A stretch of 64,000 nt of DNA from NCBI GenBank assembly GCA_017454105.1, contig JAFTDR010000203.1:2529-66528 (forward strand), in the 5' to 3' direction. Within the stretch, counting starts at the first letter, position 1, and each line of letters opens with the position of its first letter. The notes below the pieces were generated by a model. That model saw nothing but the letters and a program-made list of their open reading frames with translations. It was not told where the DNA came from and searched no databases. This document shows positions 133 to 60,064 of this stretch, piece by piece. Position numbers and translations under genes: made by a program. The DNA is from Desulfovibrionaceae bacterium (GTDB taxonomy: Bacteria; Desulfobacterota; Desulfovibrionia; Desulfovibrionales; Desulfovibrionaceae).

Positions 133-1238
133 GTGTTCTACTCCTAAATAGGGCCCATAGCCCCTCGATTGAATAGTGGTGAAGACATACACGTGCCATA
201 CGGCTTCGAATGCGAGCCTAAAGATTGCGCACGGGCACTTTTTTTCTGGCTCAAGTGTATGCAGTTCTGTGCGCGTGGGTGCGATGAATATCGCTCGCGT
301 ATCCATTGCTTTTCTTCTGACGTAAGATGCGCGGTAGTGCGACGGATACAATAACCGACCACGATGCGCTGAAGAATATCTTTGGCTTCGCACGTCTAAA
401 CCGCGCTTTGCTTTTGAGCGAGCAGATGTGTTTCCTTGGGCAAACTGACTTTTCAAAGATCGTGTGTCACTTTTTTTGACTCAAGGTGATCGTCGTATGC
501 CTTGGGCGTTTCAGAGTCACGAAATCTTCTGAAGACCCTTTTTTTGTGAGATTGTCGTGTTCGTGACGCAGGGGATTCATAGTTCGAGGCAATCAACAGT
601 ATAAACTGTCAGCATTACAGAGCCATACTCTGAGCAAATTCCCCCCCCTTCGGGGCGGGGGGGGCTTTTCGGATATTTCAACTCTCTTTGCGTCAAAAAG
701 CATGACAGACGTGCTTTTTGAAAAAAGAGAGCGCAATACATGGTTTGTCCGTTCGCTCATCGACATGAGCGGAAATTTTGAAAGCAAAAAAAGCCACGAG
801 AGCCTAGTACTGGTTTACCGAAATACGTGTGTATCTTTTGCCCGCAATCATCGTAACGAAGTAGGAGTATCTCCTACATCTTTTTACACACGGACATAGA
901 AAATTTACTCCTAGTACTGCCTTCTCGTAAGTCCGTGTTGTAAAATATGGTGGCCTACGCTGCAAGGGTAGTCTTTGCTATGCCAGTACGAGTGTTCCGT
1001 ACAATGCACGTATCGTGCGCTGGTATTGCACGCAGATTTGCCGCTGGCTCATTTTCTAGGATGTGAATGAAACGCGAGACGAGCGATTGAGCAGCGAAGG
1101 GGCGATCCCACAAAAAAGCGCAAGACCTATTTTTTCTACCCCACGTATACTCAAAGACAAGAGATTGCATAGCCAATCTCTTGGCAAGTGCATTACGGCA
1201 CAAGGCGTATTTAAGCGCGCAGGCTGCTCTCTTTGCCT

Positions 1239-1511
1239 CTATAGCGTGCCGAATATTTTCACGTATTTCATTTTGAGTTCAAAGAGCATGTTGTCAAGCA
1301 TTTGCTCTTCCTGCGCATCAAGATTGCCCTTTGTCTTTATTTTGAGCATGTCGAGAACGTCGATGCTGTGTTTTGCCAAGAGTTTGTCCGCATGCTTTCC
1401 ACCCTTTGCCGGATCCGGCACTTCCCCTAATTGAACCAGAGCGGAAGAACCCATGGACAGGATAAATGTCGAAAACGTGACTTCCGGCATGCGTGTTTCT
1501 TGCGTACTCAT
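1239..1511 (-). CDS. DUF1844 domain-containing protein
   Basis: 90 aa; FSTFILSMGSSALVQLGEVPDP...AKHSIDVLDMLKIKTKGNL...LFELKMKYV pattern. Confidence 0.8.
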   Translation of the reverse strand: MSTQETRMPEVTFSTFILSMGSSALVQLGEVPDPAKGGKHADKLLAKHSIDVLDMLKIKTKGNLDAQEEQMLDNMLFELKMKYVKIFGTL

Positions 1512-1529
1512 AGAGCGTCCCCCCTCCAG

Positions 1530-2720
1530 TTAACTGCGGATGAAAACCTGCGGGATCACGTCTCCGGGATTTCCCTGCATGGCTTCATTGTATGCGGCCA
1601 TGGCGCGTTCAAGGTAGTCGCGGGCAAGAGAGAAGCCATTTGCATGGATGAGGCTTTGATCAAGGGCATAGAGACCAGCAAGAATGTCAGACCAGTCGAC
1701 CCAACCCATATGCCCGATACGCACAAGACGCCCTTTGAGTTTGTCTTGGCCGCCGGCCATTGAGACGCCGTACTGCTCCTTTGCGTATTTCAGGACAAGT
1801 TTCCCGTCGACCCCTTCAGGCAATTGCACGCTGGTTAGGCCCCATGTGTAGTTTTCTGGGGCAAAAAGTGTGAGACCGAGGGTTTTGACGCCTGTTCTTG
1901 CGAGCATGGTGAGCGCCCACTGTTTTTTGTAGACGTTTTCCAAACCCTCTTCCTCCATCATGGCGAGGCTTTCGTCAAGACCGACAATGAGATTGACAGG
2001 CGTTGTGAAATTGGTCTCGTTCTCTTCGACTTTTTTGCGTTCGCGGGGGAGGTTGAAATAGTAGCAGCCAGGATCGTGCATCTTTGCCCGTACCCAGGCC
2101 CTTTCAGAGAGAGCAAGAAGGGCAAGACCAGGAGGCAGCATAAGGCCCTTTTGCGAGCCTGTGAGCAGGCAGTCTATGCCCCAGTCATCCATCGGGCAGG
2201 GGGAGATGCCGACAGCGGAAATTCCGTCCGCAACGAGAAGAACATCCTTGTTCCGCGTAACAGCGGCGATTTTCTGAATGGGATGGAGAACACCGGTTGA
2301 TGTCTCCGAGACCTGCACAAGAACCCCCCGAATATCGGGATCCTTGTTTAAGGCCTCCTCAAGCTTTTCAGGCGGGCAGGCCGTACCCCAGGGAAGGATG
2401 AGTTCAGAAACAGCAAGACCCCGCGCTTTTGCTATATCGCGCCAGCGTTCACCGAATTTTCCGGCGTTGACAACCAGCACTTTTTCTTCTGGCGCGAAAA
2501 GACTGTATACTGCCGCCGTCATGGCGCCAGTGCCGGATGCGGCGAGCGGGAGAACGACTTCCTTTGTGCCAAAAAGATGACGGAGGCGTGTCTGCACCCT
2601 GGACATTATGGTGTGGAAGTCTGCTTTTCTGTGGTGGATCATGTCCCGTGCGAGAGCTAGACGAACCCGCTCGGGCAGTGGTGTAGGTCCAGGGGTGAGG
2701 AGGCGAAGTTTGTTGAGCAT
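1530..2720 (-). CDS. Class V PLP-dependent aminotransferase (serine-pyruvate/alanine-glyoxylate type)
   Basis: LLTPGPT, SGTGAM and GSQKGLMLPPGL (PLP lysine) motifs; start reassigned to MLNKLRLL at 2720. Confidence 0.9.
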   Translation of the reverse strand: MLNKLRLLTPGPTPLPERVRLALARDMIHHRKADFHTIMSRVQTRLRHLFGTKEVVLPLAASGTGAMTAAVYSLFAPEEKVLVVNAGKFGERWRDIAKARGLAVSELILPWGTACPPEKLEEALNKDPDIRGVLVQVSETSTGVLHPIQKIAAVTRNKDVLLVADGISAVGISPCPMDDWGIDCLLTGSQKGLMLPPGLALLALSERAWVRAKMHDPGCYYFNLPRERKKVEENETNFTTPVNLIVGLDESLAMMEEEGLENVYKKQWALTMLARTGVKTLGLTLFAPENYTWGLTSVQLPEGVDGKLVLKYAKEQYGVSMAGGQDKLKGRLVRIGHMGWVDWSDILAGLYALDQSLIHANGFSLARDYLERAMAAYNEAMQGNPGDVIPQVFIRS

Positions 2721-3150
2721 TAGGAGATCTTCCTTTTTATCCAAGACACCGTCCAATCGTACACCGTCTAACCGTAAGGATGCGCGATTGAACGGCAAGG
2801 AGACAAGAGACTTGCGGCTTGCAATACAGGCTCTCAGTCAAAGAGCAGAGGGGCTGTATGCGAGCCCTTTGTTTGTATGGGGGGACTTTTTTTCCGTAAA
2901 AAAAATGCTGGGGAGAGTTTTTCGCTGTTTCATTGACCACAATGCGGCATGGCAGAGTAACAAAATATGCCCTCATGCGCCATACGACACACGCCTGATT
3001 TTTTTTTCGCGCGTACTGGTTGGCATACTATCGCTAAAGCTTTCACCTTGCTTTCTTTTCGCGCAGAGCGACTGACATAAGCCAAGAATCTCTGTTTCAA
3101 CTCACTTGAAAGATAGTTTTTTTTTGGATGGTGCTAAAACTAGCTCCCCC

Positions 3151-3188
3151 AAGTTCGTGTGTATCTTGTACGCAGAACTGTGCTGTAC
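3151..3188 (-). repeat. Module D copy without family C
   Basis: AAGTTCGTGTGTATCTTGTACGCAGAACTGTGCTGTAC is the near reverse complement of 33867..33904. Confidence 0.7.
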
Positions 3189-3298
3189 ACGGACTTAAGA
3201 GAAGCCAGCGCGGAAACTTTGGGCGTTTCAGTGGTACACTGCATGGGCCGTTTATGTCGCAGTTTGGGCCATGTCTTCTACTGCGGTCGCGAAAAAAG

Positions 3299-3501
3299 TT
3301 CCGCGTGTACGGATTGGCATAATATCACTCAAGCTCTGGAGCCACAAAGAACCAGGCTTTTCAGTCGTTCTTGAGTTTCGGGGCATCCTTGCCTCCTTTT
3401 AGCACAGAGCTACTGACATACGTCAAGATGCTCTGCATCGCGAGGATTCCGCTTCAACTCGCAGGGATTGAACGATATTATTGTAATCCGTACACGCGGA
3501 A
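3299..3501. mobile_element. MITE family B, 203 bp with 28-bp terminal inverted repeats
   Basis: TTCCGCGTGTACGGATTGGCATAATATC ... GATATTATTGTAATCCGTACACGCGGAA (25/28 complementary). Confidence 0.8.
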
Positions 3502-4340
3502 GAAGTTGCCAGCGATGAGCTATACTCGTGTTTCGCCCTCATCAACGGCGAAACCTTGCACTTCCTCCGATATTGGGAGGGAAGGTTTCACCCGTCGCGG
3601 GTATCCAAGATTGGGAAGTCAGACGCAGGCAGTACAAGTTGGGTTAAGGAAAAGGCGGCTGACTGTCGCTCCTGAAGGGAATTTGCAGACCATATGGGCA
3701 AGTAATTTTTGCTCAGCCCCTCATGTCAAAAGATAGACGAAAGCGTGCCAACGCTAGGATTTGCCACGCGAACTCGGACGTTGCGCATCTGCCAAACTTC
3801 ACGCAAGCCAAGCCTTTGAAGAAGCTTATGCTGGCAGTGTTTATTAAAAAGGGCACTTGCTCTCGTTACTCTTAAAAAATGTCAGGATATGTTTTTTTAG
3901 TTCACAAGGATTTTGAGGGCTGTCACAGACTTCATTTCTGGTGTCGAAACACTCTTTCAGTTTCGACAAAAGTGTTAAGATACTTTTTTACAATTCCCTA
4001 TGTTCTCACATTTGGTTAAAAAAATCTGGTTTTGTGAGTAGTCAACCAAATTACCCAAGAATTTAGGATACTCTTTAATTTCCGCCCAGCGAGTTAGCTA
4101 CTGAGAAGAGCCGCACTCCTTCGGACTTCCAACTCAAAAATATCCTTTGTAGCTAAATAGGTCTGTTTAGCTACAAAAGATTCTGTAGGATGAAAAACCC
4201 GTGTCCAGTCAAAAGGCAAGGGAACAATGCAGTTTTTAGAGAGATTCAAACCGTATCACTATCGACAAAAAACGCATCGTACCGTGGGAGAGATACGCTG
4301 AGAGACCGTTCTCCGTGAGCGGATTCAAAGTGTCAGCACT

Positions 4341-5010
4341 TCATTCTTTTTGTTCATCACTGAATGGTATACAAATACGTAATCCATCTATATGTTCTAA
4401 TAAATCATCTGGTATATGATTAAAAAGAGGATCTAATATAAAATCTATTCCTTCTCGTCTCGCGAGTTTAGCAGCGGGTACAAAATCACTATCACCTGAA
4501 ATAAGCACGATACGATCAACTTGCTTTTTGTATGCTAGTGATGCAATGTCAATGCCTATTTTTATATCAACCCTTTTTTTCAATTGAAAGGATAAAATCT
4601 TTTTCTGTTAACTCTGAAAATTTTTTTTGTCCCATTACACAGCTTTTTAATCTGGTCGGAGCAAGTGTGTAATCTATTTTTCATGTTTTGGAGCAAGTCT
4701 CTCCAAGCGAAGAGCAAATTTGCGTTTTTTTCTTTAAGATATTTAAAAAATCAGTCATTCATCTAAACAATTCAGACTTATTATAGTTAATAATTTTTTT
4801 TAGATAGGGGTGAAATATCTTTTTATCTGTCGGATAGCAGTCATAATAGAAAATTCTATATAAATAGTCGCCTATATGTTTTTTTGTAAGTCAAATGATT
4901 TCTGCAATACTCTTCAAGCTCTTTGGCTCGAAGGGCAGGACTGACTACCCCAATATATCCTGTGATTTTCTTCGGTAGAAAGCACCATCAACTAAAATAG
5001 CGGTTTTCAT
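4341..5010 (-). pseudogene. NYN (LabA/DUF88, PIN-like) RNase pseudogene
   Basis: Fragments reconstruct to MKTAILVDGAFY / YRIFYYDCYP / KFALRL / VDIKIGIDIASLAYKKQVDRIVLISGDSDFVPAAKLARREGIDF; several frameshifts (mostly in A tracts) and a TGA at a probable W codon (LFR*MTDF). Confidence 0.85.
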
Positions 5011-5023
5011 AATAGCAAAAAAG

Positions 5024-5071
5024 CCTCTAGGCTCAACACTGCCATGATCTTCGGCGGTCTACTGCTAGAGG
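5024..5071 (-). ncRNA. Candidate structured RNA directly upstream of the NYN start codon
   Basis: Outer stem CCTCTAG/CTAGAGG encloses an internal loop and an inner GCC(G)/(T)GGC hairpin; ends 13 nt before the ATG. Confidence 0.45.
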
Positions 5072-7540: not shown

Positions 7541-7574
7541 AGTCGCTCTGTGCGCCGAGTTATAGGTTGACCGT

Positions 7575-9176: not shown

Positions 9177-9293
9177 GATAATGGGCCCTTGCATCAACGT
9201 TGAAAAACGCAGATGTCTCCCAAGTCCACCATGGGCCTGGGAGAATCTGTCCTGTACATAGTTTCAGGTGGCACAGTGTACTTCGTACGGAGA

Positions 9294-10325: not shown

Positions 10326-10336
10326 GCATCCGTTCC

Positions 10337-11224: not shown

Positions 11225-11284
11225 GTTTTTGCGCAGTTGCCTTCCTCCTTTTTTTAACACTGCCTTGACTTTGGCAGAAAAGAT

Positions 11285-13155: not shown

Positions 13156-13250
13156 GATACTGCGGTCAGAAAAAAGTCGCCACTTGAAGTTAAAATATCA
13201 TACTCTGTACTGACTGCTGCTAGCAAAAATGTCAGTTTATTTCTGGCTTA
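13156..13250 (-). mobile_element. MITE family A copy (one end eroded)
   Basis: ATACTGCGGTCAGAAAAAAGTCGCCAC...GCAAAAATGTCAGTTTATTTCTGGCT matches the family consensus in reverse. Confidence 0.8.
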
Positions 13251-13879: not shown

Positions 13880-13981
13880 TATACTGCAGTCAGAAAAAAA
13901 GGACCACGTTGAGTTGAAAAGAGCAGACTCAGTGCAGACTTCTGTTTTCAAAAATGGCAGTTTGTTTCTGGCTGGAGTCTC
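13880..13981 (-). mobile_element. MITE family A copy upstream of mgtE
   Basis: TATACTGCAGTCAGAAAAAAA...CAGTTTGTTTCTGGCTGGAGT. Confidence 0.8.
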
Positions 13982-16678: not shown

Positions 16679-17590
16679 TTAGTATGTCTGCTGAATACCA
16701 TCCAACTTCCATGTGCCGTCAGGCAGCGCACGGATGAAATGCCAGATTTCGCGTGCCGGCTCCGGTCTCACCTGATTTGGATCCTCACGCATAAGCACAT
16801 CGAAATACACCTGCGCCCGCTGTATGCCGGCATCGGTTGTCACGCCCATGAGCTGGACATTGATGGTGATAAGTTCGGTGTGCGAGGGATTCGGATCCTC
16901 TCGCATCTGGTTGCGGAGTTCATCCATAACGGCTGGAGTCGCGAACTGGGAGATATCGTCAAGATCCCTGCGGTCCCAGGACGACTGCATACGCACATAG
17001 GCCGCTTTGGCTCCCTGGAGGAATTCGTCAACATTGAAATCCGGCGGAACATTCGGCCCGCCGAATGTATTGCTGCCACTGCCTGTATAGGTATTGTCCT
17101 GATACTGCATGCCGTCCTGGGGCTGAGCGTAGCCGTAGCCCTGCTCGTATGACGGCTGTTGCTGCTGAGCCTGCTGGTTTGCCTGGAATCTGCGGAACAA
17201 TTTGTAACCAAAATAGCCGAGAACACCGAGAAGGAGAAGGTCAAAGATAAAGCCAAGGCCGCCACCGCCACCTCCGGCAACAGCGCCATGGCCACCGCCG
17301 AGCATGGAGCCAATAAGTGTGCCCGCGAGCAGGCCGCCAAAGAGGCCGCCCATAGCGCCCATGCCTGTGCTAGGACGAGGAGCCGCCTGTGGGGCGGGCG
17401 AGTACGGTCTCTGAGCCTGTGGCTGGGGTGATGCGGGTCTTGGAGCAGGAGCTGCGGAGCGCATTGCGGGGCTCCCGCCAAACGATTTTCCTCCGCCCAT
17501 GCGAGCCGCGTAACTTGAATCAACGTACGAGAGTGTCAGGGCAGTGCAGGCTAAGAAAAGAATGGAAAAGATAAGCCATTGTTTCATCAA
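16679..17590 (-). CDS. Tim44 domain-containing protein
   Basis: Signal peptide, ARMGGGKSFG, Gly/Pro-rich linker, FLQGAKAAYVRMQSSWD...EIWHF...WKLDGIQQ. Confidence 0.85.
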   Translation of the reverse strand: MMKQWLIFSILFLACTALTLSYVDSSYAARMGGGKSFGGSPAMRSAAPAPRPASPQPQAQRPYSPAPQAAPRPSTGMGAMGGLFGGLLAGTLIGSMLGGGHGAVAGGGGGGLGFIFDLLLLGVLGYFGYKLFRRFQANQQAQQQQPSYEQGYGYAQPQDGMQYQDNTYTGSGSNTFGGPNVPPDFNVDEFLQGAKAAYVRMQSSWDRRDLDDISQFATPAVMDELRNQMREDPNPSHTELITINVQLMGVTTDAGIQRAQVYFDVLMREDPNQVRPEPAREIWHFIRALPDGTWKLDGIQQTY

Positions 17591-17917
17591 TTTTTTTCGA
17601 CGCGGATACCCCGGTTTGTCAACCCAGGGAGGAAACGTCGCCTCCTTTGTTTTCCTCTATTGATACGAATAACCGTCGGATCTGCAAAAAAAAAAGACGG
17701 CAGTATTTCCATGGATAGGCCTAGAAGAGAGAGTTCGCTTTTTCTGACCCTGTTTTGCCATACCCGGCCGCATAATGGTTTTCCCTTGAAGGTAAAGAAG
17801 AGCAGCAGGGCTCACTTCATGTCGCGGGAAGAATCATTGTGACCTCGAACATATGTACTGGCCGATTACGATGGGCTCTGTTTGATGCCGTGTCGAGTAG
17901 ATATATACTCTTAGATA

Positions 17918-18090
17918 TATACTCTAGCCAGAAATTAACTGACATATTTGCGAACGAGAGTCAGCAATGAGTCTGGTATTTTCAACTCAAAGTGACAATT
18001 TTTTTTCTGACCGCAGTATACTTGAGCCAGAAACAAACTGACCTTTTTGCGAACTGTATCAGCACTCAAGTCTCGTATTTTCAAGAGCCA
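17918..18090 (+). mobile_element. Tandem MITE family A pair (full 103-bp copy plus truncated copy sharing a TATA)
   Basis: 17918..18020 TATACTCTAGCCAGAAA...TTTCTGACCGCAGTATA; second copy starts at 18017 TATACTTGAGCCAGAAA. Confidence 0.85.
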
Positions 18091-18211
18091 GATCGTCGTG
18101 GGTTTGAGTAGAGTCCAATGGGGAGCCGTCTCAAATGGCCACTTGACTTAAGAGAACGGACAGGTCTCTCTTTTCCGTATGCTTCTTTGCTTTGAACAGA
18201 TGGTGGATGTC

Positions 18212-19114
18212 TTATCGCGATTGGAAATTTTCACTGTCAACAAAAAACCAGTAGAGCGCGCCCATTGTGAACGCTTTTGGCTGCCCGTCTGCGCCCTTAA
18301 GCGGCGGACCCTCGCGCAGCGCCCTCGCACACCACCAGCCCGATCGGTTGAGGACTGCGGTAAACTGTCCGTTGGCATTCGTTTTAAAGACTTGGGATTC
18401 ATGCCAGGGTGTTGGAACTTTTTGGTTGTCTGTATTGATTCGTTCAAGAATAACCAGACAGTTAGGCTGGGCTTTCCCTTCAAAAAGCACGGTTCCCTGG
18501 AAGAGCGCAGGCGCAAGAAGACCAAAGGGGCGCGTTTGCGGGACAATTTCAAAGCGCTGGCCAGATTGCTCGTCCCAGCCTGTGTCGTCGCCGAAAACCG
18601 GAAGCATCACTTTAACAAAATGCTGCATAAAGCATGTCTGCGCGTCATTCCACCAGGGTTTGGTTTCAAGAAGAAAATGATAGAGTCCCGGCGATGTGAG
18701 CGCAACATTGGCCCCCCAGGCTTTTTTCCCCTTATACAGGATCTCCTCGACATCACCCAAGAGGTCGCCACGCAAAGGTTTCGGGTGGCCGTCGACGATG
18801 GGCTCAGTCCGTCTGTACAAGAGGACCGTGAAGGACTGCGGCGTGTCCATTGAGAAACATTCATTGCTGAAAGCGTGCATGCGCGTGATCAGAATGTCTG
18901 TTTCCTCGCGGATGCCTGCCTCGTCCTTTGTGGCCTGCGTCTTTGCCTGGGCTTTCTTGGGCTGGGTTTTGTTGATATCTGGCCTAGCCGGGATGAGCAG
19001 GGTCACCTGGGCGAGAGCCGGATTTGCAAGTAGGAGTGTTATGAAGATGAGTTGTGCAAGCAGCACAGATGCGAGAACAGAGAGGTTTTGCATGACGCGT
19101 GCGGTAAGGTCCAT
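18212..19114 (-). CDS. DUF4198 domain-containing protein
   Basis: KPWW...HFVKV...GWD...FEIVPQTRPFGL...FQGTVL...KTNANGQF...GWW pattern; signal peptide. Confidence 0.75.
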   Translation of the reverse strand: MDLTARVMQNLSVLASVLLAQLIFITLLLANPALAQVTLLIPARPDINKTQPKKAQAKTQATKDEAGIREETDILITRMHAFSNECFSMDTPQSFTVLLYRRTEPIVDGHPKPLRGDLLGDVEEILYKGKKAWGANVALTSPGLYHFLLETKPWWNDAQTCFMQHFVKVMLPVFGDDTGWDEQSGQRFEIVPQTRPFGLLAPALFQGTVLFEGKAQPNCLVILERINTDNQKVPTPWHESQVFKTNANGQFTAVLNRSGWWCARALREGPPLKGADGQPKAFTMGALYWFFVDSENFQSR

Positions 19115-19443
19115 GGCAACCTACTGTCGTTAAAATTCCGAGGCCCCAAACGCTCCCAACCGGGACAAAAACGTTTTGGATGTGTGCGCGTGTCTGGACT
19201 CATATTGAACCAAGATCCAGCGTACATCTTTGTACACACGGACTTTAGGGCGTCACAATGATGCTTCCCTGCCGGCCAATTGAGATCGCTTCCCTTTGGC
19301 TCTCCAGGGAAAATCATAGAGAAACACAAAAGTCCCAGAAGTGAGCGCAGTGAACGTTCGCATACGCTCTTGCGCAACAAACATCGCAACTGACTACGTC
19401 AAGATGCGATGTGCGCTATGATTTCAGCTTCGACTGCAGGGAG

Positions 19444-19546
19444 TGTACTTAAGCCAGAAATACACTGACATTTTTGCGAACGGGAGTCAGCATTCAAGTC
19501 AAGTATTGTCAACGTACAGTGGCAACTTTTTTTCTGACCGCAGTGT
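19444..19546 (+). mobile_element. MITE family A copy
   Basis: TGTACTTAAGCCAGAAA...GCGAACGGGAGTCAGCA...TTTCTGACCGCAGTG. Confidence 0.85.
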
Positions 19547-19684
19547 ATGTGACGTACAAGAGCATTGAAAGCCTGCTGCAGAGCCGCAGATGCGCGGGGC
19601 ACGCTCTCTGGCTACAGGCTGAAATGACCGTCTTTTGCTTGCCTTGGGCTTTTGCAATTCTTGCAAACGGCGCATTTGCGTGAG

Positions 19685-20416
19685 TTAAGGCGAAAGCTTG
19701 TCTTTCTCCTGCCAACGTGAAACGCCTTTGCTGCTCATTTGCGAGAGATTGCGACACACTGCGTACGTATCCTGTGTGAGCTGCCATTTTTTTTGCTCGG
19801 CGAAAAAAGCCGCATAGTCAGCATTTTTTTCGTCTGCTGTGCCTGTATTTTTGAGGGAGATGGCCAGATGCCGCATCATTTCATCGATTCCGTGAAGATA
19901 GTCCGCATCCGCCAGGAGATCCTCCCTGGTTTCAAGACCACGGCGAACACAGGTCGCAAGGATAGTGCGTGAGAGCAGGTCTAAAAAATAACGGAGGGTC
20001 AGAATTGCTCCGTCAAAGAGTTTGTCTCCCTTTTTGCGTCCTGCATGGAGCAAAACAAGGCTTGGTTTGCGTGTTTTTGACGTACGCTGGGCATGCCAGT
20101 AGCGCTGGCTTCTGTCAACAAGCGCTTTGCACTGTGCTGGCAGGGCATAAAAATAGATGGGCGCTACAAGTATGAGCAATTGGCATGCCCGCATGGCGTC
20201 GAGAATGGCCGATGCTTTGTCGTCTTCTCTGTCAAAAACACAGGCTCTGTGTGTCCTGCAAAAGCCGCAATTGGTGCAGGGGTGGATTGTTTGAGAGGAG
20301 AGAGTACACAGGTCTACGCGGATTGTTTCGCGTGTCAAAGCGTCTTCTATGTGGCGGGCAAGATGGGCTGTTACGCCGCACGCATTGGAGCTTGCCTGCA
20401 GTAAGAAGACGCTCAC
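19685..20416 (-). CDS. Flavodoxin family / NADPH-dependent FMN reductase with Fe-S motif
   Basis: PCTNCGFC and APIYFYALPAQCKALVDRSQ; GTG start overlaps the MBL hydrolase stop. Confidence 0.8.
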   Translation of the reverse strand: MSVFLLQASSNACGVTAHLARHIEDALTRETIRVDLCTLSSQTIHPCTNCGFCRTHRACVFDREDDKASAILDAMRACQLLILVAPIYFYALPAQCKALVDRSQRYWHAQRTSKTRKPSLVLLHAGRKKGDKLFDGAILTLRYFLDLLSRTILATCVRRGLETREDLLADADYLHGIDEMMRHLAISLKNTGTADEKNADYAAFFAEQKKWQLTQDTYAVCRNLSQMSSKGVSRWQEKDKLSP

Positions 20417-23967: not shown

Positions 23968-24139
23968 CAGTCTTTAGCGTTAAACCCTTCAGAGGCCTCA
24001 ATCCTTGGCGTCACAATGACTCTTCCCTGCCGACCAATGGCTGTCTAGGGAAAACAAGAATCCAGTCGGATAGAGAGAGACCTCTGGAGGATACGCTGCC
24101 TCCACTTTGTTGAATACTCGAAATCGAAAAGATTTCTTT

Positions 24140-24242
24140 TATACTCCAGCCATAAACGATACTTACACGTTTACGAAAGCGAGTCAGCACTGGGTCGCTA
24201 TTCTCAGCGTAAAGTGGCAACTTTTTTTCTGACCGCAGTATA
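24140..24242 (+). mobile_element. MITE family A copy
   Basis: TATACTCCAGCCATAAA...GAGTCAGCA...TTTCTGACCGCAGTATA, 103 bp. Confidence 0.85.
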
Positions 24243-24987
24243 AAAAAAGACAAAAACCCGCTCTCCCACAGCAAAAGCGGCATAGATATGCAGCCCTCGT
24301 GGTCAGACCGGTTTCACTCAACTTTGGCTCAATCTGCCGTTCATTTGTGCGGCAAAAAGTCTCACGAGGGACAGCCCGCACAGAGCCGAGCTCGGTGTAT
24401 ATTTCTTTTCTTAGTACAATAGAAATCGCTGGGCGCGCACCGCATGCGTACTGAGAATCACAGTGTATTGCATCTCGATTTTCAGTAAAACCATCTGAAG
24501 AAGGGGCGAATTTCAGGGTTTTCGATTGTACAGAGCAAATCGTCAAAATTCAGCTACTCAAGCGAGAAAAAATGACTCTGCGAGATGGATTTCCAAGCTA
24601 CGCTGGTTGCAAAGGTATCTGTGCTTGCCCGAAAGGACTGCTATTGAACTCCTAGAAATCTAACTTTTGCACGTTTTTATGCGTCAAATGCAAGTACCGT
24701 GACTTTGCCATAAATTTCACGAAGAAAACGAGTCTGTAATCCACATTAGCCGTGATCTCCTTAGGGGCGTAGGTACGACGTATGCGGTTTTGTTTGCATT
24801 TCACGTACAAAAACATGTAAAAATTAGATGAAAAGGCCGTCATTTCTGGCTTGCGAGGGGGAGACAGTAAGCAGCGGGGCGAATCGCTTGCAAGCAAATC
24901 ATCGAATAAAAAAATGGTGCCTGTACGACGATATGCCTGGCCCAGAAATGCGTGTGACCTCAAAGAATCGGCGAGGGGGCTATACGA

Positions 24988-25086
24988 TATACTGCGGTTA
25001 GAAAAAAAGTTGCCACATAGAGCGAACAATACCAGACTTCTGACTCCAGTTCGCAAAAATGTCATTTTGTTTCTGGCTGGAGTATA
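24988..25086 (-). mobile_element. MITE family A copy
   Basis: TATACTGCGGTTAGAAAAAAAGTTGCCAC...TTTCTGGCTGGAGTATA. Confidence 0.85.
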
Positions 25087-25465
25087 CTACCAATGATGTT
25101 TAGCTCTTATGACCTGCTACGTATTGAGTGGCAGCTAATGAGTCGCAAGTATACTTTCTGTTGCGGGAAGGATCTTTGCGCCGAAATGCAGACACTCTGA
25201 CTTCAAGTGGTAATTTTTTTTTGACCGCAGTATATACTCAGCGTGAATCCGAACGATACCGCACAGCTTGTGGCACCTGACTTGCGATGCACAAACGAAA
25301 AAAAAATACGCAGGTGGTATTTTTTCTTGCAGCTATCAGCAATTCTTCACGCAGCGGCCAATTGACGAGTTCTCACTTGGCTGCGAAGTCCGGGATACGG
25401 TCTTTTCACAAAGAGTTCTGAAGAACACAAGACGACAAATCGTGCGAAGGCTTTCGGGAGTGTGA

Positions 25466-25558
25466 TATACTCGACCGCACATTGATTTTCCGCAGAACGC
25501 TTCGAGTGACACTCTAACCTCGTCCACCTAGGGGAAAATCTTTATGAGGTTGAGTATA
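25466..25558 (+). mobile_element. MITE family C copy (93 bp)
   Basis: TATACTCGACCGCACATTGATTTTCCGCAGAACGC...CTAGGGGAAAATCTTTATGAGGTTGAGTATA. Confidence 0.8.
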
Positions 25559-25921
25559 CAAGAATCTGGCAGAGTGTACACGCGAGCCCTTGTTCGCCCG
25601 ACCACACGCGCTAAGCCGTACCTTGTGCCAGCAGACGGCTTTCGCTATTGCAGGTAGTGAGTGAAGGCCTAGCCTTGTCCGATTTGCGTCTTAGACCCAA
25701 AGTTCGCCATGGCGAACTTTGATCTTCTGCAGCAAACGGCAGTATTCGACGACTCACTGTCAATTAGAAAAGCTGCAGTGGGACATTGTTCACGCTTCAC
25801 TGTAAAAAAAAACGTACAGGTAGTCCATCCATATCGTACTTGCTGCATCCAAAAATTGGAAAACTTCACAAAAAAATTCCGCGTACACGGATTGGCAGGC
25901 TATCGCACAGTCGCTTGAGCA

Positions 25922-26022
25922 AACACTTAGGTGATAAAAAAATGGCACTTGGGGTCGAAAATACCAAACTCAGCGCTGACTCACACTCGCAAATATGTCA
26001 CTTTGTGCTTGACTGGAGTATA
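25922..26022 (-). mobile_element. MITE family A copy (diverged)
   Basis: AAAATACCAAACTCAGCGCTGACTC...CGCAAATATGTCA...CTGGAGTATA. Confidence 0.75.
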
Positions 26023-26059
26023 AGAACCAATTCGCACGTCGCAGACTCTCTCTGATTTT

Positions 26060-26247
26060 TGCCGCGTGTACGGAATAATAGTATATCGGTCACGATCGGG
26101 AACCCCAAAGAACCAGTCTATTCAGTTGCTCACGGCATTCTTGCATCCTTTTTGCAGTCACTGACTACAGATGGAGAAGACGGTCCGTGCCACGAGAAGT
26201 TCAGGGTCCACTGTTGAACGATAGTATTGTAATCCGTATACGCGGGA
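26060..26247. mobile_element. MITE family B copy
   Basis: GCCGCGTGTACGGAATAA...CAAAGAACCAG.CT.TTCAGT (core shared with the 3299 copy)...GATAGTATTGTAATCCGTATACGCGG. Confidence 0.75.
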
Positions 26248-26334
26248 TTTTTGCGCATTTTCTCAGTACAATAAAAGAACCTTGCAGCACGCGCAGTTCT
26301 CGGTATTTGACTTAGAATTGCAATCTTTTCTACG

Positions 26335-26428
26335 TATACTCAACTTTATCAAGATTTTCCTATAGGTGGCCGACGAGAGAGCGTAACTCTTAGGCGTTCT
26401 GCGGAAAATCAATGTGCAGTCGAGTATA
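26335..26428 (-). mobile_element. MITE family C copy (94 bp)
   Basis: TATACTCAAC...AAGATTTTCC...GCGTTCTGCGGAAAATCAATGTGCAGTCGAGTATA. Confidence 0.8.
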
Positions 26429-26817
26429 CCCAGAGGGCACAATTTTCCTAGGTTTCCTATTTTGCTGAGAAATTCGTCAAAAATCAGGGGACTTGAGCCA
26501 AAATGCACGAGAGCGCGAGGATTTTAGTTTTAACTCGGCAGTCCATACACGAGGAAAAAATTTTTCGCTCTGCTTTTGGCCGCTGTGATTGTGATTGGAG
26601 CTGTATTCAATGCGCGACGGAAAGTCTGTATCAGCCGAGGCTAGGGACGGGAGAGTGCACTCTTTGCGAGCAGAGATTCGGATTGTCTTTTGAGCGCCAT
26701 GGGAAGAATCACAGTGCCGATGCGTATAGCCTTGAGTTCGGATATTCTTGAAACATCCTGACTTTTTAATCCGACAGCAAAATTCGCCCTTTGCTGCGGC
26801 CTTAAAAAACGCCTTGC

Positions 26818-26921
26818 TATACTGCAGTCAGAAAAAAAGTTGCCACTTGGAGTTAAAAATACCGGCCTTGGGTGCTGACTCCCGTTCGCAACAATGTCAG
26901 TTTGTTTTCGGCTGGCGTATA
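26818..26921 (-). mobile_element. MITE family A copy
   Basis: TATACTGCAGTCAGAAAAAAAGTTGCCAC...GCTGACTCCCGTTCGC...GGCTGGCGTATA. Confidence 0.85.
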
Positions 26922-27458
26922 TCGGAAGGGGCAGCAGTCTGGTGGGGTTTGGACAAGCGCGTACAGTGTTTTCCCGCAAGAGGCATTTGCAGCGTATCTT
27001 TGTCTTTCGAGAGCTGAACCTTACGCTTTTCATAGACGCGCCGCGCAATAGGGCCGAACGTTGCGCAATCGCGAGATCCTTCTCGGCGTGCACAGACTGT
27101 GAGAACCTGCGGCGCCGCTTCTTGCGGCGAGAAAGACTTGCCCTAAGAATGAGCAGATGGCGGTTGCGTGTCACAATGATTCCGCAACAGAAAGTTGCCT
27201 TGACAGTCGCTTTCTTTCGGGATCTCGTGGGAAAACGCATGCGCGATCAGGTATACGTGCCACGTGACTTGGTGAGCGGTCGTATACTGCGGTCAGCTTG
27301 CTTGAGTATAGTATCTGGCCGGAGGAGACGGCGTACGCCTCCTCAAAGTGAGGCCAAAGTAGGGGCAGCTTTTTTCTGGCTTGAGTTGAGACAAAAGGGA
27401 AGCACTGTTTCCTAGCATTTTTTGCTTAGGAAGTTTGAGCTCTTTGGTCCCTTTGATT

Positions 27459-33784: not shown

Positions 33785-33904
33785 TATACAAAGCTCGGAC
33801 CGCACATTAATTTTCCGCAGAACGCTTCGAGCTAGGGGAAAATCTTTATGAGGCTGAGTATACGTCGTACAGCAGAGTTCTGCGTACAAGAAGCACACGA
33901 ACTT
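33785..33904 (+). mobile_element. MITE family C copy (internally deleted) followed by module D
   Basis: CGCACATTAATTTTCCGCAGAACGCTTCGAGCTAGGGGAAAATCTTTATGAGGCTGAGTATA, then GTACAGCAGAGTTCTGCGTACAAGAAGCACACGAACTT. Confidence 0.75.
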
Positions 33905-37132: not shown

Positions 37133-37300
37133 CAAGTTTGAGAGGCTCTTTGTACGCAGAACTGTATGCTGGAGGATCCCCAGCTCTTTGTTCACACGTG
37201 TCGCTTTTCATTCGCATTCTACTCAGCCTCATAAAGATTTTCCCCTAGGTGAACGATGTCAGAGTGTAACTCTAAGCGTTATGCGGAAAATCAATGCGCA
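37133..37300 (-). mobile_element. MITE family C copy plus module D (reverse orientation)
   Basis: ACTCAGCCTCATAAAGATTTTCCCCTAGG...GCGGAAAATCAATGCG; TTGTACGCAGAACTGT at 37150. Confidence 0.7.
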
Positions 37301-38038: not shown

Positions 38039-38141
38039 TATACTCGAGTCAGAAAAAAAATGCCTTCATACGTGACCTGTGATTTCAGGCATTGCGCTTT
38101 TCTAGCTTAACGATGGCAACTTTTTTCCCGACCGCAGTATA
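38039..38141 (+). mobile_element. MITE family A copy with divergent core
   Basis: TATACTCGAGTCAGAAA...GGCAACTTTTTTCCCGACCGCAGTATA, 103 bp. Confidence 0.75.
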
Positions 38142-38568: not shown

Positions 38569-38924
38569 ATTGTAGAAGAGTGAGCTTAAATCAAGGTATT
38601 CGCTCGCAGGGGGAAGGTAGAATGGAGGGAAGATAGAATGGGGGGCCGCCTCATTGAAGCTTCGCTGCGATTTCTCTTCTGTTTGAGCCTCTGACAGGAG
38701 TCTTTTGTACTGAACCTGATACTCTCTTAAGCGTACGTTCCTTTCGATAGGGTATTACAATTCGAGAAGTTGATTGCAATGAGTGCCACACCGCACTGCG
38801 AGAGTATCTGGCCTCTCTGCCATAAACTCCTCCAGTCTCTTGCAATCAACCAGTAGAATCGTAATACGTAAGCGTATTGACCCTTTTGACTCCAATCCTA
38901 AACTCTTCACCATTGTGAACTTTG

Positions 38925-38966
38925 CATTGTCAACTCAAAGCGACAATTTTTTTTTCTGACCGCAGT
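38925..38966 (+). mobile_element. MITE family A right-end fragment upstream of trmD
   Basis: CAACTCAAAGCGACAATTTTTTTTTCTGACCGCAGTG. Confidence 0.75.
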
Positions 38967-49485: not shown

Positions 49486-49559
49486 TGGAGTTCTCCTTTA
49501 TTTGAGATTCGGCGTTGCGCCGTATCCATTATATAGCCCTTTTTTTTTCACTTGAAAAG

Positions 49560-50072: not shown

Positions 50073-50091
50073 GGTTTTCTCCGTGATTGGG

Positions 50092-50955: not shown

Positions 50956-51110
50956 GGGCGACCTTGTCTTGATTGACAGAAAATTTGGGGACTTCTCTTT
51001 TTACGTCAGGCATTCGAGAGTGTGGTCTTGGTATACTTTGGCAGTCCGTTTCAAGGTGAACGAGGTTTTTTTGGGGGGCTGCACGTCTCTTTGTCAAAGT
51101 GCATACGGCC

Positions 51111-52955: not shown

Positions 52956-53084
52956 GAAGACCTCTTAGAAGGGGATGATACAAGGCGTCACAATGATTTT
53001 TCCCATGCCGATTCATTGATGGCGCTTTCCTCTGGCTTGTGTGGAAAAAACATTGTGCGGCCAGGTAGAACACGGTTTTCCATG

Positions 53085-53164
53085 TGTACTTGAGCCAGAA
53101 ACAAACTGACACTCTCAAGTCTGGTATTGTTAACACCAAGTGACAACTTTTTATCTCGAGTATA
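53085..53164 (+). mobile_element. MITE family A copy with internal deletion
   Basis: TGTACTTGAGCCAGAAACAAACTGAC..CTCAAGTCTGGTATT...GAGTATA, 80 bp. Confidence 0.8.
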
Positions 53165-55667: not shown

Positions 55668-55845
55668 TCGAGCATTCACAGGACGCGCCCGATATGCTAT
55701 AGGTCTTTATATGGTCTCTCTGTGCTGGTTGTAAACCGGCCTTGCGGGTGCTAAAAAACGATCAGACCGCCACAGAAAAGCGCAATTGTCATCTCTTGCG
55801 TCATGAAGGATCTGTCCCCTTTTGGAGGAGACGGATCCTTCATTG

Positions 55846-55881
55846 CTGCAAGGCTCTGCAAGGCTCTGCAAGGCTCTGCAA
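55846..55881. repeat. 10-bp tandem repeat (CTGCAAGGCT x3.6)
   Basis: Directly visible between tolC and the T1SS ATPase gene. Confidence 0.9.
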
Positions 55882-56029
55882 AGTTTTTTGTACGCGTGCG
55901 CCCCGTGTGCCGACCAATTGAGAGAGGAGGCCCTGGAAAGAAGTTTTAAGGTATGCAGTTTTGTGCAGGATTGGCAGGCGCCTGACAGTGTCGGGCGTTG
56001 TATTCTCCGTGCTGAAAGGGAGCGTTGCA

Positions 56030-58228
56030 ATGAGTCAGGCTGAAGTACAGAGTTCCGCTCAGGTAAAAGGGCAGGGTGTTGGTCCGCTCAGACCTTCAGA
56101 TGTGGATTTTACGCCGTCTCTCTTAAAGAGCATGTCCATTCTTCTGCGTCTTAAAGGACGTCCCGTCTCTCCGCAAATCCTTGTCGCAAGCCTTGGCAGC
56201 GGCAAGGTGAGTCCGCAGGCCTGTCTTCGGGCCGTGCGCAAAGTTGGGATTGTAGCCGACATCCTGTACCGTCCGACTCTCGATAGCATCTCCTCCCTCC
56301 TTACGCCCTGCATTCTTCTGCTTACAAACGACCGATCCTGCGTTTTGACAAAGATTGACGGTGAGTCTTACTCTGTTATTTTTCCAGAGACAGGCGAAGA
56401 GACTGTTGTTGTCGAGCGCGAGGAGCTGGCAAAAGAGTACTCGGGCTACGCGCTATTTGCCGCGCTGCCCACGCGGACCGAGGATCGTGTCGAGAGACTG
56501 ACGATTTCGAGCGGGAAACGCTGGTTTTGGGATGTTTTGCGCTACTACGCGCCCATTTACCGCCATGTCGCCTTGGCGAGTGTTGTGATCAATCTGATTG
56601 CCATTGCCTCGCCCCTCTTTGTCATGAATGTCTACGACCGCGTAATACCAAACAATGCCGTCGAGACACTCTGGGTTTTGGCAGTCGGAGTCTTGATCAT
56701 CTATATTTTTAATTTTCTGCTGACAGTTTTGCGCACTCACTTTGTCGATGTCGCGGGTCGCAATGCCGATATTGTGCTCTCAAGCACCCTTGTGGACAAA
56801 GTTCTCTCTATGCGTCTTGATTCAAAACCTGAGTCAACAGGCGCGCTTGTGAATAACCTTCGGGAGTTTGAGCAGCTTAGGGAATTTTTTAGTTCCTCAA
56901 GCATGCTCGCATTGATCGATATACCATTTCTTTTTATATTCATTGTCCTCATTGGCTTTATCGGCGGGTCCATTGTCTGCCTGCCGCTCATTGCCCTGCC
57001 AACGCTTTTTGTTCTCGGTCTCTTTCTCCAGCACCGCTCGCGCGCGGTTGCTGAGAGTGGCTACAAGCAGAACATGCAGAAAAATGCCCTACTTGTTGAG
57101 ATCGTGAACGGCATAGAGACACTCAAAAGCTGCATGGCCGAGTCGCGCATGCTGCGCTTATGGGAGTCGGTTGTTGGGCTCTCAGCGAAGTCGTCAAGCG
57201 ACACAAGGCGCTACAATAGTCTCGCTATTGCGGGATCCATGTTTGTGACCCAGTTTGTGACTGTTGCCATGATTATCTGGGGGGTCTACGCTATAGCAGA
57301 AGGCAATATGACAATGGGCGGGCTTATTGGCTGCAATATTCTTGTCGGCCGGGCCATGGCCCCGATGCTTCAGATGGCGACACTGCTCACGCGTCTCCAG
57401 AATTCGCGCATCACCCTGAAGTCCCTGGATATGCTGATGCAGCTTCCTTCGGAAAATCAGGCTGAGCGCACACTTATGGATTTTGGCTCCCTTGAGCCCT
57501 CCTTCACCTTGGAGGATGTCTCGTTTGCCTATCCGAATGCGAAGCGCTTAACTCTCGATCACATATCCTTGCGCGTTGAGCCAGGCGAGCGGGTTGGCAT
57601 CATAGGCCCCATGGGTTCAGGCAAAAGCACACTCTCGCGAATTTGCCTTGGTCTCTATCAGCCAAGAGACGGGGCTGTGAAATTTGGCGACGTCGATATC
57701 CGTCAGATTCCAGTCTCTGAGTACAGGAGCAGAATAGGTGTTCTGCCGCAGGATGTGGTCCTTTTTTACGGCTCAATTCGCGACAATATCACACTTGGGG
57801 ATCCGACCATAAACGATCATATGATTCTTAGGGCTGCGAGCTTGGCCGGGGTCACGGATTTTCTCCGCAACAATCCCGACGGCTTTGCGGCGCAGGTCGG
57901 CGAGGGCGGCAAGGCCCTCTCAGGCGGCCAGAGGCAGGCTGTTGCGCTTGCAAGAGCCTTGGTGCGCGATCCAGAAGTCATCTTTCTTGACGAGCCGACA
58001 AGCAATATGGACACAGACTCAGAGATTCTGTTCCAAAAGCGCCTTCTTGGGGCCCTTGCTGGGAGAACACTCTTTCTTGTGACCCACAGGCTTTCGATGC
58101 TGCGCGTAATCGACAGGCTTCTTGTTATGGAGAACGGGCAGATCAAGCTTGATGGTCCAAGGGACACGGTTCTTAAGGAGCTTCGGGAGCAGTCAAGCCG
58201 ACGGATCAACAAGGTCGCAAAAGGATAG
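56030..58228 (+). CDS. Type I secretion permease/ATPase with C39-like N-domain (LapB-like)
   Basis: LTPCILL, PLFVMNVYDRVIPN, GPMGSGKST, LSGGQRQ, LDEPTS. Confidence 0.93.
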   Translation: MSQAEVQSSAQVKGQGVGPLRPSDVDFTPSLLKSMSILLRLKGRPVSPQILVASLGSGKVSPQACLRAVRKVGIVADILYRPTLDSISSLLTPCILLLTNDRSCVLTKIDGESYSVIFPETGEETVVVEREELAKEYSGYALFAALPTRTEDRVERLTISSGKRWFWDVLRYYAPIYRHVALASVVINLIAIASPLFVMNVYDRVIPNNAVETLWVLAVGVLIIYIFNFLLTVLRTHFVDVAGRNADIVLSSTLVDKVLSMRLDSKPESTGALVNNLREFEQLREFFSSSSMLALIDIPFLFIFIVLIGFIGGSIVCLPLIALPTLFVLGLFLQHRSRAVAESGYKQNMQKNALLVEIVNGIETLKSCMAESRMLRLWESVVGLSAKSSSDTRRYNSLAIAGSMFVTQFVTVAMIIWGVYAIAEGNMTMGGLIGCNILVGRAMAPMLQMATLLTRLQNSRITLKSLDMLMQLPSENQAERTLMDFGSLEPSFTLEDVSFAYPNAKRLTLDHISLRVEPGERVGIIGPMGSGKSTLSRICLGLYQPRDGAVKFGDVDIRQIPVSEYRSRIGVLPQDVVLFYGSIRDNITLGDPTINDHMILRAASLAGVTDFLRNNPDGFAAQVGEGGKALSGGQRQAVALARALVRDPEVIFLDEPTSNMDTDSEILFQKRLLGALAGRTLFLVTHRLSMLRVIDRLLVMENGQIKLDGPRDTVLKELREQSSRRINKVAKG

Positions 58229-58232
58229 CACT

Positions 58233-59951
58233 ATGGCGGAGGCTTTGAAAAAAGAATTGGTTGAGGGCGGATGGCAGTCGCTTCCGAAAATGCCCGGAGC
58301 CCAAGGGAAAAAGGTGCTTGTGAATGCCTCCGGTTCGTCCCCTGTCATAATGTCGCTTCAGAGGACGGATTTGCCTGTCGAAGTCTCGGAATCGAGCGGT
58401 TTCGGCGGTTTTGTCCGCTCTCTTGTTGTGCCTGGAAAGGGGGAGCAGCCAGGAAATCAAGATCCGTTAAAGGCTGCCCAGGACTATCTGTTTTCTGGTG
58501 GCGGATCACAGGTGCCGCAGACAATGCCCGGCCTACCGGCTGCGAAAAAACCGGGTCTTTTCGCAGCCGTCGATGCGCCCCTTGAAGGGCTTATGCCGGA
58601 CGATATCCGTTTCGCAAACGAACTCGATGCCGCAATGCTCAGAAGACCGCGTTTTGGCGCGCGCGTACTCTCGCTTTCCGTTGCGCTCATGTTTTTTGTC
58701 TTGATTGTCTGGGCAGGTTTTGCGGAATTAGACGAGGTCACCCACGCGGACGGATCGGTTGTCGGATCGCAGCGCACGCAGACCATCCAGAATCTTGAAG
58801 GCGGCATTATCCGATCCATTTTTGTCCATGAAGGGCAGGTCGTTGAGAAAAACACGATCTTAGCCCAGCTGGACAATGAGCTTGCCGAATCTTCCTATCG
58901 CGACGCGATCAATAAAACGATTGAAAACTCGCTCGCAATCGAGCGTCTTGAGAGCGAAATGGCCGAAAAGGAGCCTGTTTTTCCTGAAGACCTCAATATC
59001 TGGGTTGCGCGCATCATCGGCCAGTATCCAAATTCCCAGACTCTGAAACGGGCCGAGCAGATTGTCCAGGACCAGAAGAATACCTACACAAGCCGCACGG
59101 TTCAGCTTGCCGCTGAGATCGATGTCTTGAAATCGCAGTACAATCAGAGAATGCACGAGGTGGCTGAGGAGACCTCGCGCAAGGTCCAGCTCGACAAGAG
59201 TCTTGAGCTTGCGATCCGTCAGCGCAATACGGCCTATAATCTTGTGCGCCACAACAATTTTTCGCGTCTTGAGTTCATCGGCCTTGAGCAGAAGGTCGTG
59301 GATCTTCAGGGCCAGGTGGACCAGCTCGCCTCAAGCATTCCGCGGGTGCGCGCAGCGGCCGAGGAATTTAAGCAGCGCATTGCTTCGCGCAAAGCCGAGC
59401 AGCAGGCCGGCATTTCCGCTGAAATAAACAAGCGTCGCCTTGAACTCATAAGCCTGCGCGAGACGCTCGCTGCCGGCGGTGACAGGGTGACCAGAACGGA
59501 ACTGCGCTCCCCTGTGCGCGGCACAGTCAAGCAGATTTATGTGAATAGCGTGGGCGGCGTTGTGAAGCCTGGCGAATCGATTATGGACATTGTTCCGCTC
59601 GACGATACACTTTTGGTCGAAGCGCGGGTGGCACCGCGCGATGTCGCTTTCTTGCGTCCAGGACAGGATGCCATTGTCAAGGTCTCAGCCTATGACTTCA
59701 ATATCTACGGCGGCCTTGAGGGCAAGCTTGAGTCAATCAGCGCGGACTCAATTGAGGACAGACGCGGCGATTATTTCTTTATCGTAAAGATTCGCACGCC
59801 TCAAACCAATATCATTTACCACAACGAGGTTTTGCCTATCATACCTGGTATGATGGCGACGGCCGATATTCTTATCGGCAAAAAGACCGTCCTCGATTAT
59901 CTTATGAAGCCCATATTGAAGGCCAAGCAGAATGCACTGCGCGAGCGCTAA
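58233..59951 (+). CDS. HlyD-family type I secretion adaptor (LapC-like)
   Basis: IQNLEGGII, LRSPVRGTV, GGVVKPG, IIPGM...ILIGKKTVLDYLMKP. Confidence 0.93.
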   Translation: MAEALKKELVEGGWQSLPKMPGAQGKKVLVNASGSSPVIMSLQRTDLPVEVSESSGFGGFVRSLVVPGKGEQPGNQDPLKAAQDYLFSGGGSQVPQTMPGLPAAKKPGLFAAVDAPLEGLMPDDIRFANELDAAMLRRPRFGARVLSLSVALMFFVLIVWAGFAELDEVTHADGSVVGSQRTQTIQNLEGGIIRSIFVHEGQVVEKNTILAQLDNELAESSYRDAINKTIENSLAIERLESEMAEKEPVFPEDLNIWVARIIGQYPNSQTLKRAEQIVQDQKNTYTSRTVQLAAEIDVLKSQYNQRMHEVAEETSRKVQLDKSLELAIRQRNTAYNLVRHNNFSRLEFIGLEQKVVDLQGQVDQLASSIPRVRAAAEEFKQRIASRKAEQQAGISAEINKRRLELISLRETLAAGGDRVTRTELRSPVRGTVKQIYVNSVGGVVKPGESIMDIVPLDDTLLVEARVAPRDVAFLRPGQDAIVKVSAYDFNIYGGLEGKLESISADSIEDRRGDYFFIVKIRTPQTNIIYHNEVLPIIPGMMATADILIGKKTVLDYLMKPILKAKQNALRER

Positions 59952-60015
59952 TCAAAGAGTCCCGTTTCTGTTTGCGGGTGTGGCATGGACGCCTTTGGGC
60001 GAGGTTTTTCGAGTA

Positions 60016-60064
60016 TATACTCAAGGCAGAAACAAAGTGACAGCTTGTTTCTGGCCGCAGTCAT
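60016..60064 (+). mobile_element. MITE family A mini-derivative between hlyD and the HD-GYP gene
   Basis: TATACTCAAGGCAGAAACAAAGTGACAGCTTGTTTCTGGCCGCAGT: two ends only. Confidence 0.65.

Follow-up and report, generated by a model that had tools for sequence, protein, structure and literature searches.

Scattered through a 64-kb stretch of a Desulfovibrionaceae genome (positions 2529-66528 of contig C98, hereafter the window) is a repeat of about 103 bp, family A, that begins with TATACT and ends with AGTATA. What is this repeat, and what moved it? The initial annotation of the window, made from its letters alone, had read it as a miniature inverted-repeat transposable element (MITE), and the inverted repeats, TA duplication, hundreds of copies and IS630-family element with matching ends that go with that reading were all found. 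We consider it very probable that family A is a non-autonomous, non-coding MITE of the IS630/Tc1-mariner type, carrying the ends of an insertion sequence (IS) of about 1.3 kb in the same genome.

A genome-wide repeat family with sharp borders

The motif TATACT-N5-CAGAAA, with up to two mismatches allowed, was counted in the window and in 100 shuffles. There were 32 matches against 3.15 expected, and none of the 100 shuffles reached 32. The whole assembly (4.26 Mb, 341 contigs, 49.8% G+C; contigs are given as C-numbers) was searched with nhmmer, using a profile first seeded with seven window copies and rebuilt from 363 full-length genome copies. The rebuilt profile gave 702 raw hits at E<1e-3, spread over 210 contigs, and 639 non-redundant family A-type copies once hits on both strands were merged. 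This bears out the hundreds of copies per genome that had been predicted, and the family extends well beyond the window, to about 210 of the 341 contigs. Together the 639 copies cover 58.4 kb of the 4.26-Mb genome (1.4%), at a density of about 150 per Mb. Full-length copies number 365, and the modal length is 103 bp. The borders are sharp to the base, with 1.5-2.0 bits of information at TATACT and AGTATA just inside the element and about 0 bits in the flanks, reflecting many dispersed copies between unrelated flanking sequences. The TATACT...AGTATA repeat is confirmed as a real repeat family.

The element proper is 99 bp long, running from TACT to AGTA between a duplicated TA. Its two ends align with each other as terminal inverted repeats over about 30 nt. 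Conservation among the copies is 90-98% in the ends and 40-70% in the interior, as expected if only transposase-binding ends are selected for mobility. The consensus is non-coding, with stop codons in four of six frames and no frame in which a start codon stands in a coding context.

Core family A makes up about 300 of the roughly 640 copies. At least four sister families combine family A ends with unrelated interiors (23, 19, 15 and 4 copies, with lengths of 105, 133, 103 and 104 bp); examples are C243:3811, C174:20212, C15:271 and the window copy at 38039-38141.

Insertion at TA and recent movement

For an empty-site test, each full copy was excised in silico, its flanks were joined, and the joined sequence was searched in the genome. 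The empty sites found are paralogous, being uninterrupted paralogues of repeats that copies had hit, and 54 of them gave an ungapped alignment over the junction. A single TA was the best fit in 46 of the 54, TATA in four, and neither in the remaining four. Examples are C251:4297 compared with C217, at 98.8% identity over 82 bp, and C168:4874 compared with C329. For the window copy at 38039-38141, empty sites on C162, C2 and C159 read ...AACAGGA-TA-GTTTG..., again with one TA. A single TA at empty sites indicates that the element duplicates TA on insertion, so the TA duplication that the initial annotation had proposed to look for is shown on paralogous sites. The bases around the target TA are nearly random, and there is no CTAG preference.

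Some copies lie between unrelated flanks and are 100% identical (C245:2429 and C81:5190; C168:4874 and C6:136), and several further pairs, with flanks likewise unrelated, are 98-99% identical. Identical copies at unrelated loci mean that some transpositions were recent. Median identity is 88% to the nearest neighbour and 77% over all pairs; most copies are old and few are recent.

A partner IS630-family element with matching ends

The genome has nine matches to DDE_3 (PF13358), none of them on contig C98, so the statement that the window holds no partner transposase was correct. The search for an IS630-family transposase with matching ends, which had been suggested alongside it, turned up an element of about 1.3 kb elsewhere in the genome. 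Its left end is TATACTGCGGTCAGAAAAAAAATTGC and its right end TATACTCCGGCCAGAAAAAAAATTGC, corresponding to the two non-identical ends of the MITE. The left end stands at the edges of C196, C38, C257, C314 and C126 as TATACTGCGGTCAGAAAAAAAATTGCTCTTTTTGTCTTGAC..., and 108 bp beyond it a ribosome-binding site is followed by the start of the transposase frame, ATG CCC AGA TTA TCG.... The right end, ...TTTCTGGCCGGAGTATA, lies 3' of the transposase stop codon on C129, where a 266-amino-acid open frame is followed 80 bp on by ...AAAAAGTGCAATTTTTTTTCTGGCCGGAGTATA, and in the same position on C218, C23, C101, C140, C254, C261 and C151, to whose edges the C129-type C-terminal coding sequence and end extend. 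Among themselves these contig-edge copies show 98.8-100% identity, as expected of a multi-copy, recently active IS in a short-read assembly, and their position at contig edges accounts for the high fragmentation of the assembly. C234 has a complete but degenerate copy (about 67-1380), from which the length of about 1.3 kb was taken.

The partner transposase is a member of the IS630 family. Against NCBIfam NF033545 (IS630 family transposase; cut-off 100) the C129 frame reaches 150 bits and against PF13358 DDE_3 (cut-off 28.6) 83 bits, and it also matches PF13592 HTH_33. Its catalytic residues are spaced D-78-D-34-E (DD34E), and among annotated relatives on plasmids the closest are IS630-family transposases, with 40-48% identity.

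The two IS ends form a 33-bp inverted repeat with three mismatches, and these mismatches are mirrored in the MITE. At the GCGGTC end of the MITE, TATACTGCGGTCAGAAAAAAAGTTGC, 25 of the first 26 bases match the IS left end, while the CCAGCC end, TATACTCCAGCCAGAAACAAACTGAC, resembles the IS right end, with a weak alignment over about 70 nt. MITE and IS match end for end. To judge from these alignments, the MITE would be a copy of the IS without its interior, retaining about 30 bp from the left end and about 70 bp from the right.

We infer that the MITE is mobilised in trans by the partner transposase through cut-and-paste chemistry. In the proposed mechanism, the IS transposase would bind the inverted MITE ends of about 30 bp in trans, cut the MITE out and paste it into TA dinucleotides. 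Repeated rounds would have given rise to the roughly 640 copies and to the small sister families, at least four in number, that share the ends, and copies would persist where they are harmless, in non-coding DNA and in either orientation.

Candidate transposases for family A

Several points weigh against the explanation given above. Two further IS630 lineages in the genome also have TATACTC tips and could cross-mobilise the MITE. The assembly holds no intact full-length partner IS, as the middle is lost and the copies collapse at contig edges, and the internal copies on C129, C234 and C9 are truncated or frameshifted; an active partner transposase is thus suggested by the near-identical contig-edge copies and not read directly. 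The host genome is a metagenome-assembled bin, so that copy counts such as the 639 are estimates. Finally, no orthologous empty site from another strain was found: the nearest species, G018, is about 70% identical in coding DNA, a level at which intergenic DNA is not alignable base by base. The only other assembly found with the same window protein, L043 (ENA ERZ27256812 k141_310968, a metagenome contig with a MEGAHIT-style name), comes from the same strain and is probably the source assembly of the bin; it is 99.96% identical to window positions 19301-41546 (22 kb), and every MITE is present in it.

The alternative that survives best is that the MITE was moved by some other transposase, either from another IS630 lineage (ends TATACTCGCGACGGAAAAGATCTTCC or TATACTCGGCnnnGAAAAnATTTTCCC) or from an extinct partner, which would make family A a fossil family. 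All three IS630 lineages share TATACTC tips, the median identities given above show most copies to be old, and the matching IS is degenerate in its assembled internal copies. Past the 7-bp tip, however, the first IS alone matches the MITE, and it does so at each end separately (GCGGTC/GCGGTC and CCAGCC/CCGGCC, then AGAAA(A/C)AAA). The contig-edge ends of this IS, 98.8-100% identical, also indicate recently active copies, and identical MITE copies at unrelated loci speak against a pure fossil. We regard movement by another transposase as improbable.

The second IS630 lineage is represented by a complete 1,473-bp element at C176:1168-2640 with ends TATACTCGGCnnnGAAAAnATTTTCCC and by a near-copy on C163; its transposase, of 350 amino acids, is 53% identical to that of the MITE partner. 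The third lineage, with ends TATACTCGCGACGGAAAAGATCTTCC, breaks contigs C17, C48, C93, C108, C161, C181 and C197. A tip at window positions 5767-5793 matches this third lineage and probably belongs to another MITE family that uses its transposase. Genome-wide, the heptamer TATACTC occurs 1,403 times against about 520 expected, an excess explained by the sister families with family A ends and the two further IS630 lineages with TATACTC tips.

Genomic location, orientation and folding

Genes were called roughly, from longest open reading frames (ORFs) and a codon model whose training set was frames 400 amino acids or longer, giving 3,140 genes and 69% coding sequence. Outside the called genes lay 90% of the MITE hits, with non-coding DNA making up 31% of the genome. 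The 61 hits that overlap called genes all lie about 0-200 bp from an ORF end, and are attributable to over-extended starts under the longest-ORF rule or to 3' clipping. In-frame insertion into genes, as by the RPEs of Rickettsia, had come under consideration because two frames of the consensus are open; it was rejected, since 61 of 61 overlaps are at ORF ends.

There was no orientation bias relative to neighbouring genes, with 135 copies opposite and 119 in the same direction in tandem spacers. Tandem, divergent and convergent spacers hold 254, 100 and 91 copies, tracking the 559, 219 and 172 kb available in each. The predicted fold is a stem of the inverted ends only, with z = -2.6 against shuffles for the strand in IS orientation and z = -0.5 for the other strand. 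Location, orientation, folding and conservation all fit a selfish element in which only the transposase-binding ends are constrained.

These data bear on a second alternative, that family A is a functional cis-element or small-RNA gene (a terminator, regulatory hairpin or protein-binding site) spread and kept by selection. The inverted ends can make a long stem, the IS-orientation strand folds somewhat better than its shuffles (the z of -2.6), and a run of seven T follows a short GC-containing segment near one end. Such an element is nevertheless very unlikely: the other strand has a z of only -0.5, Rfam has no match in the window, orientation is unbiased, neither convergent nor tandem spacers are enriched, and conservation is high in the transposase-binding ends but poor in the interior. 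The spread is also accounted for by the TA duplication and the matching IS. A terminator, promoter or small-RNA role is not supported.

A REP/BIME-type palindrome moved by a RAYT (Y1) transposase, or another repeat of non-DDE origin, would likewise be short, intergenic, partly palindromic and high in copy number, but can be dismissed as barely credible, as family A is 103 bp with inverted ends of about 30 bp and not a 20-40-bp palindrome, makes a clean TA target duplication, and has IS630-family ends and a DDE partner; no search for a RAYT gene was made.

Copies within the window

The family A copies and fragments in the window are as follows (position, strand, description, evidence).

232-260, minus: terminal fragment of about 29 bp with a CCAGCC-type tip; nhmmer on the window alone, E 0.004, model 5-33; motif match at 243-259
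13156-13250, minus: near-full copy with a degenerate tip at the CCAGCC side; nhmmer E 9e-22, model 12-108
13880-13981, minus: full copy, 102 bp; nhmmer E 2e-24, sequence inspected
17918-18020, plus: full copy, 103 bp, ends TATACT...AGTATA; nhmmer E 6e-30
18017-18086, plus: 5' fragment, 70 bp, abutting the 17918-18020 copy, with TATA common to both; nhmmer E 3e-11, model 6-75, junction inspected
19444-19547, plus: full copy, 104 bp, tips TGTACT...AGTGTA; nhmmer E 2.5e-26
24140-24242, plus: full copy, 103 bp; nhmmer E 1.7e-22
24988-25086, minus: full copy, 99 bp; nhmmer E 2e-26
25198-25234, plus: 3' terminal fragment, 37 bp; nhmmer E 1e-4, model 71-108
25935-26023, minus: near-full copy without the GCGGTC-side tip; nhmmer E 6e-16, model 5-93
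26818-26920, minus: full copy, 103 bp; nhmmer E 4e-28
27283-27310, minus: 28-bp fusion of two tips (TATACTGCGGTCAG-CTTGCTTGAGTATA), an interior-deleted remnant; sequence inspected, weak nhmmer match at 27282-27296
38039-38141, plus: sister-family copy, family A ends around a different interior, from a 4-member cluster; nhmmer E 1e-13, clustering
38918-38966, plus: 3' fragment, 49 bp; nhmmer E 1e-6, model 58-105
53085-53156, plus: shortened or internally deleted copy, about 72 bp; nhmmer E 8e-10, model 8-96
60016-60064, plus: mini-copy of about 49 bp with only the two inverted ends; nhmmer E 7e-5 and 0.008 (two strands), sequence inspected

A run of nhmmer with the profile built from genome copies recovered each of the nine full or near-full copies in the initial annotation's list, as well as the fragments at 18017, 25198, 38918 and 53085. 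The near-full copy that it had placed at 25922 starts at 25935. Its copy at 38039 does have family A ends, joined to the interior of the 4-member sister family. The weaker items at 239, 27283 and 60016 do derive from family A ends, and are respectively a tip fragment, a tip fusion and a mini-copy. The item at 3279 does not belong to family A, as its terminus runs on into a different, longer repeat family (compare C70). The junction at 18017-18086 is consistent with one copy having inserted into the TA that terminates its neighbour, which would make one of the two the later arrival.

Window positions 23968-27458 form a 3.5-kb region without a convincing gene, dense with family A and other repeats (repeat blocks at 24137-26924). 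A separate dispersed repeat of about 92 bp occurs at 25467-25558, 26335-26427, 33798-33862 and 37225-37299 and has at least 84 copies genome-wide. At C184:1633 a family A copy sits inside one member of this repeat, giving one of the clearest empty sites.

Distribution of family A

A scan of the window at Rfam gathering thresholds found no family match. The element had no match among PLSDB plasmids, and blastn (word size 11, E<=0.01) gave none in 5,426 E. coli genomes (20,395 records), which are carriers of ERIC. A literature search found no MITE described for Desulfovibrio. The view that family A is apparently uncatalogued therefore held in Rfam, E. coli genomes and plasmids. A BLAST search with the consensus in 40 relatives gave no match. 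A pattern of the two ends with a 55-85-bp spacer occurred 80 times in this genome and was absent from 400 others of the order, among them about 66 congeneric species and about 240 other species of the family. The MITE is restricted to this lineage.

The congener G018 carries a 3' remnant of the partner IS, with the end ...GTGCAATTTTTTATCTGGCCGGAGTATA, and no family A copies, which implies that the IS lineage is older or more widespread than the MITE burst. The remnant, at L027 1700-1782 (G018:C44), has 76% protein identity over 69 amino acids and terminates in ...CTGGCCGGAGTATA.

Scanning public genome contigs with a 20-mer from the end gave one 40-bp mini-element of two tips, in a metagenome-assembled Desulfovibrio genome from goat rumen, and two other hits that looked unrelated. 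The two-tip element indicates that related elements exist in rumen Desulfovibrio. It lies at L019 1658-1697 (JAFTCE010000113) and reads TATACTCGCGCACGGCAACTTTTTTTCTGACCGCAGTATA, one tip being identical to a family A end. In metagenome contigs the same scan found five contigs that share the 20-mer alone and not the element.

Comparison with known systems

The RUP element of Streptococcus pneumoniae is linked to IS630-Spn1. Family A has in common with the IS630-family MITEs RUP and MITEEc1/ERIC a length of about 100-130 bp, non-coding sequence, terminal inverted repeats and TA duplication, together with an intergenic location, tens to hundreds of copies and the ends of an IS630-family element. 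It differs from RUP and ERIC in its tips (TA|TACTsCrGyCAGAAA), its host and its higher density of about 150 copies per Mb, and the blastn search of E. coli genomes showed no sequence similarity to ERIC/MITEEc1.

Like the Correia elements of Neisseria (NEMIS/CREE), which are 100-150 bp long, family A has inverted ends, TA duplication and size variants made by internal deletion, and amounts to hundreds of copies and about 1-2% of the genome. Functional promoter, IHF-binding and RNase III sites are present in the Correia elements, whereas no such function is indicated for family A, which lacks orientation bias. Their partner transposase is unsettled, unlike the IS630 candidate partner of family A. 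The initial annotation had linked Correia elements to IS630; this link is not established, as a large survey places the Neisseria MITE under IS1106/IS5 (10.1101/2024.01.18.576219). The same survey records MITEEc1/ERIC under IS630 in ISfinder, and only 1.6% of its candidate prokaryotic MITEs match ISfinder entries (10.1101/2024.01.18.576219).

The partner IS resembles other members of the IS630 family (NF033545; for example the ISAcma14-like elements of Acaryochloris) in its HTH_33 and DDE_3 domains, DD34E spacing, 33-bp inverted ends and TA target. It is diverged, with less than 50% identity to any plasmid-borne relative, and is without a CTAG target preference.

Family A is thus an ordinary kind of element, an IS630-derived MITE with TA duplication, at unusually high copy number. 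What stands out is the density of about 150 copies per Mb, the restriction to one lineage and the repeat-inflated host genome; no new mechanism is opened. The pair documents a MITE and its partner IS for a Desulfovibrionaceae-type sulfite reducer, a group for which no description of a MITE was found, and marks about 640 sites at which gene callers may call false short ORFs or extended gene ends. It would also offer a natural case of one IS630 transposase driving a burst of several passenger families and inflating non-coding DNA, a value that lies in the high number of copies per Mb, the confinement to one lineage (0 of 400 relatives) and the coexisting sister families with the same ends.

Host genome context

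The genome encodes dsrA (640 bits, above cut-off), which places its owner among the dissimilatory sulfite or sulfate reducers. Its 4.26 Mb exceed the genome sizes of all other species sampled in the genus (1.4-3.7 Mb), and the rough ORF and codon-model call puts its coding density at about 69%. About 42% of the non-coding DNA (12.7% of the genome) recurs in one or more other places, and 17.5% of it (5.4% of the genome) is present in at least ten copies. Short dispersed repeats make up at least 5-13% of the DNA, and most of these appear to carry one IS630-type end (TATACTC...). It is conceivable, though we think it rather unlikely, that the lineage is undergoing an unusual genome inflation driven by MITEs and ISs, in which one transposase lineage services many unrelated passenger families; such inflation would possibly go with a lifestyle that recently became host-restricted or small-population, and some MITE copies may have been co-opted as regulatory DNA.

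The window spacers at 17590-18212 and 19114-19685, in which MITE copies lie, are 525 and 554 bp longer than the syntenic spacers on G018:C47, and MITE insertions of about 100-170 bp account for only part of this extra length.

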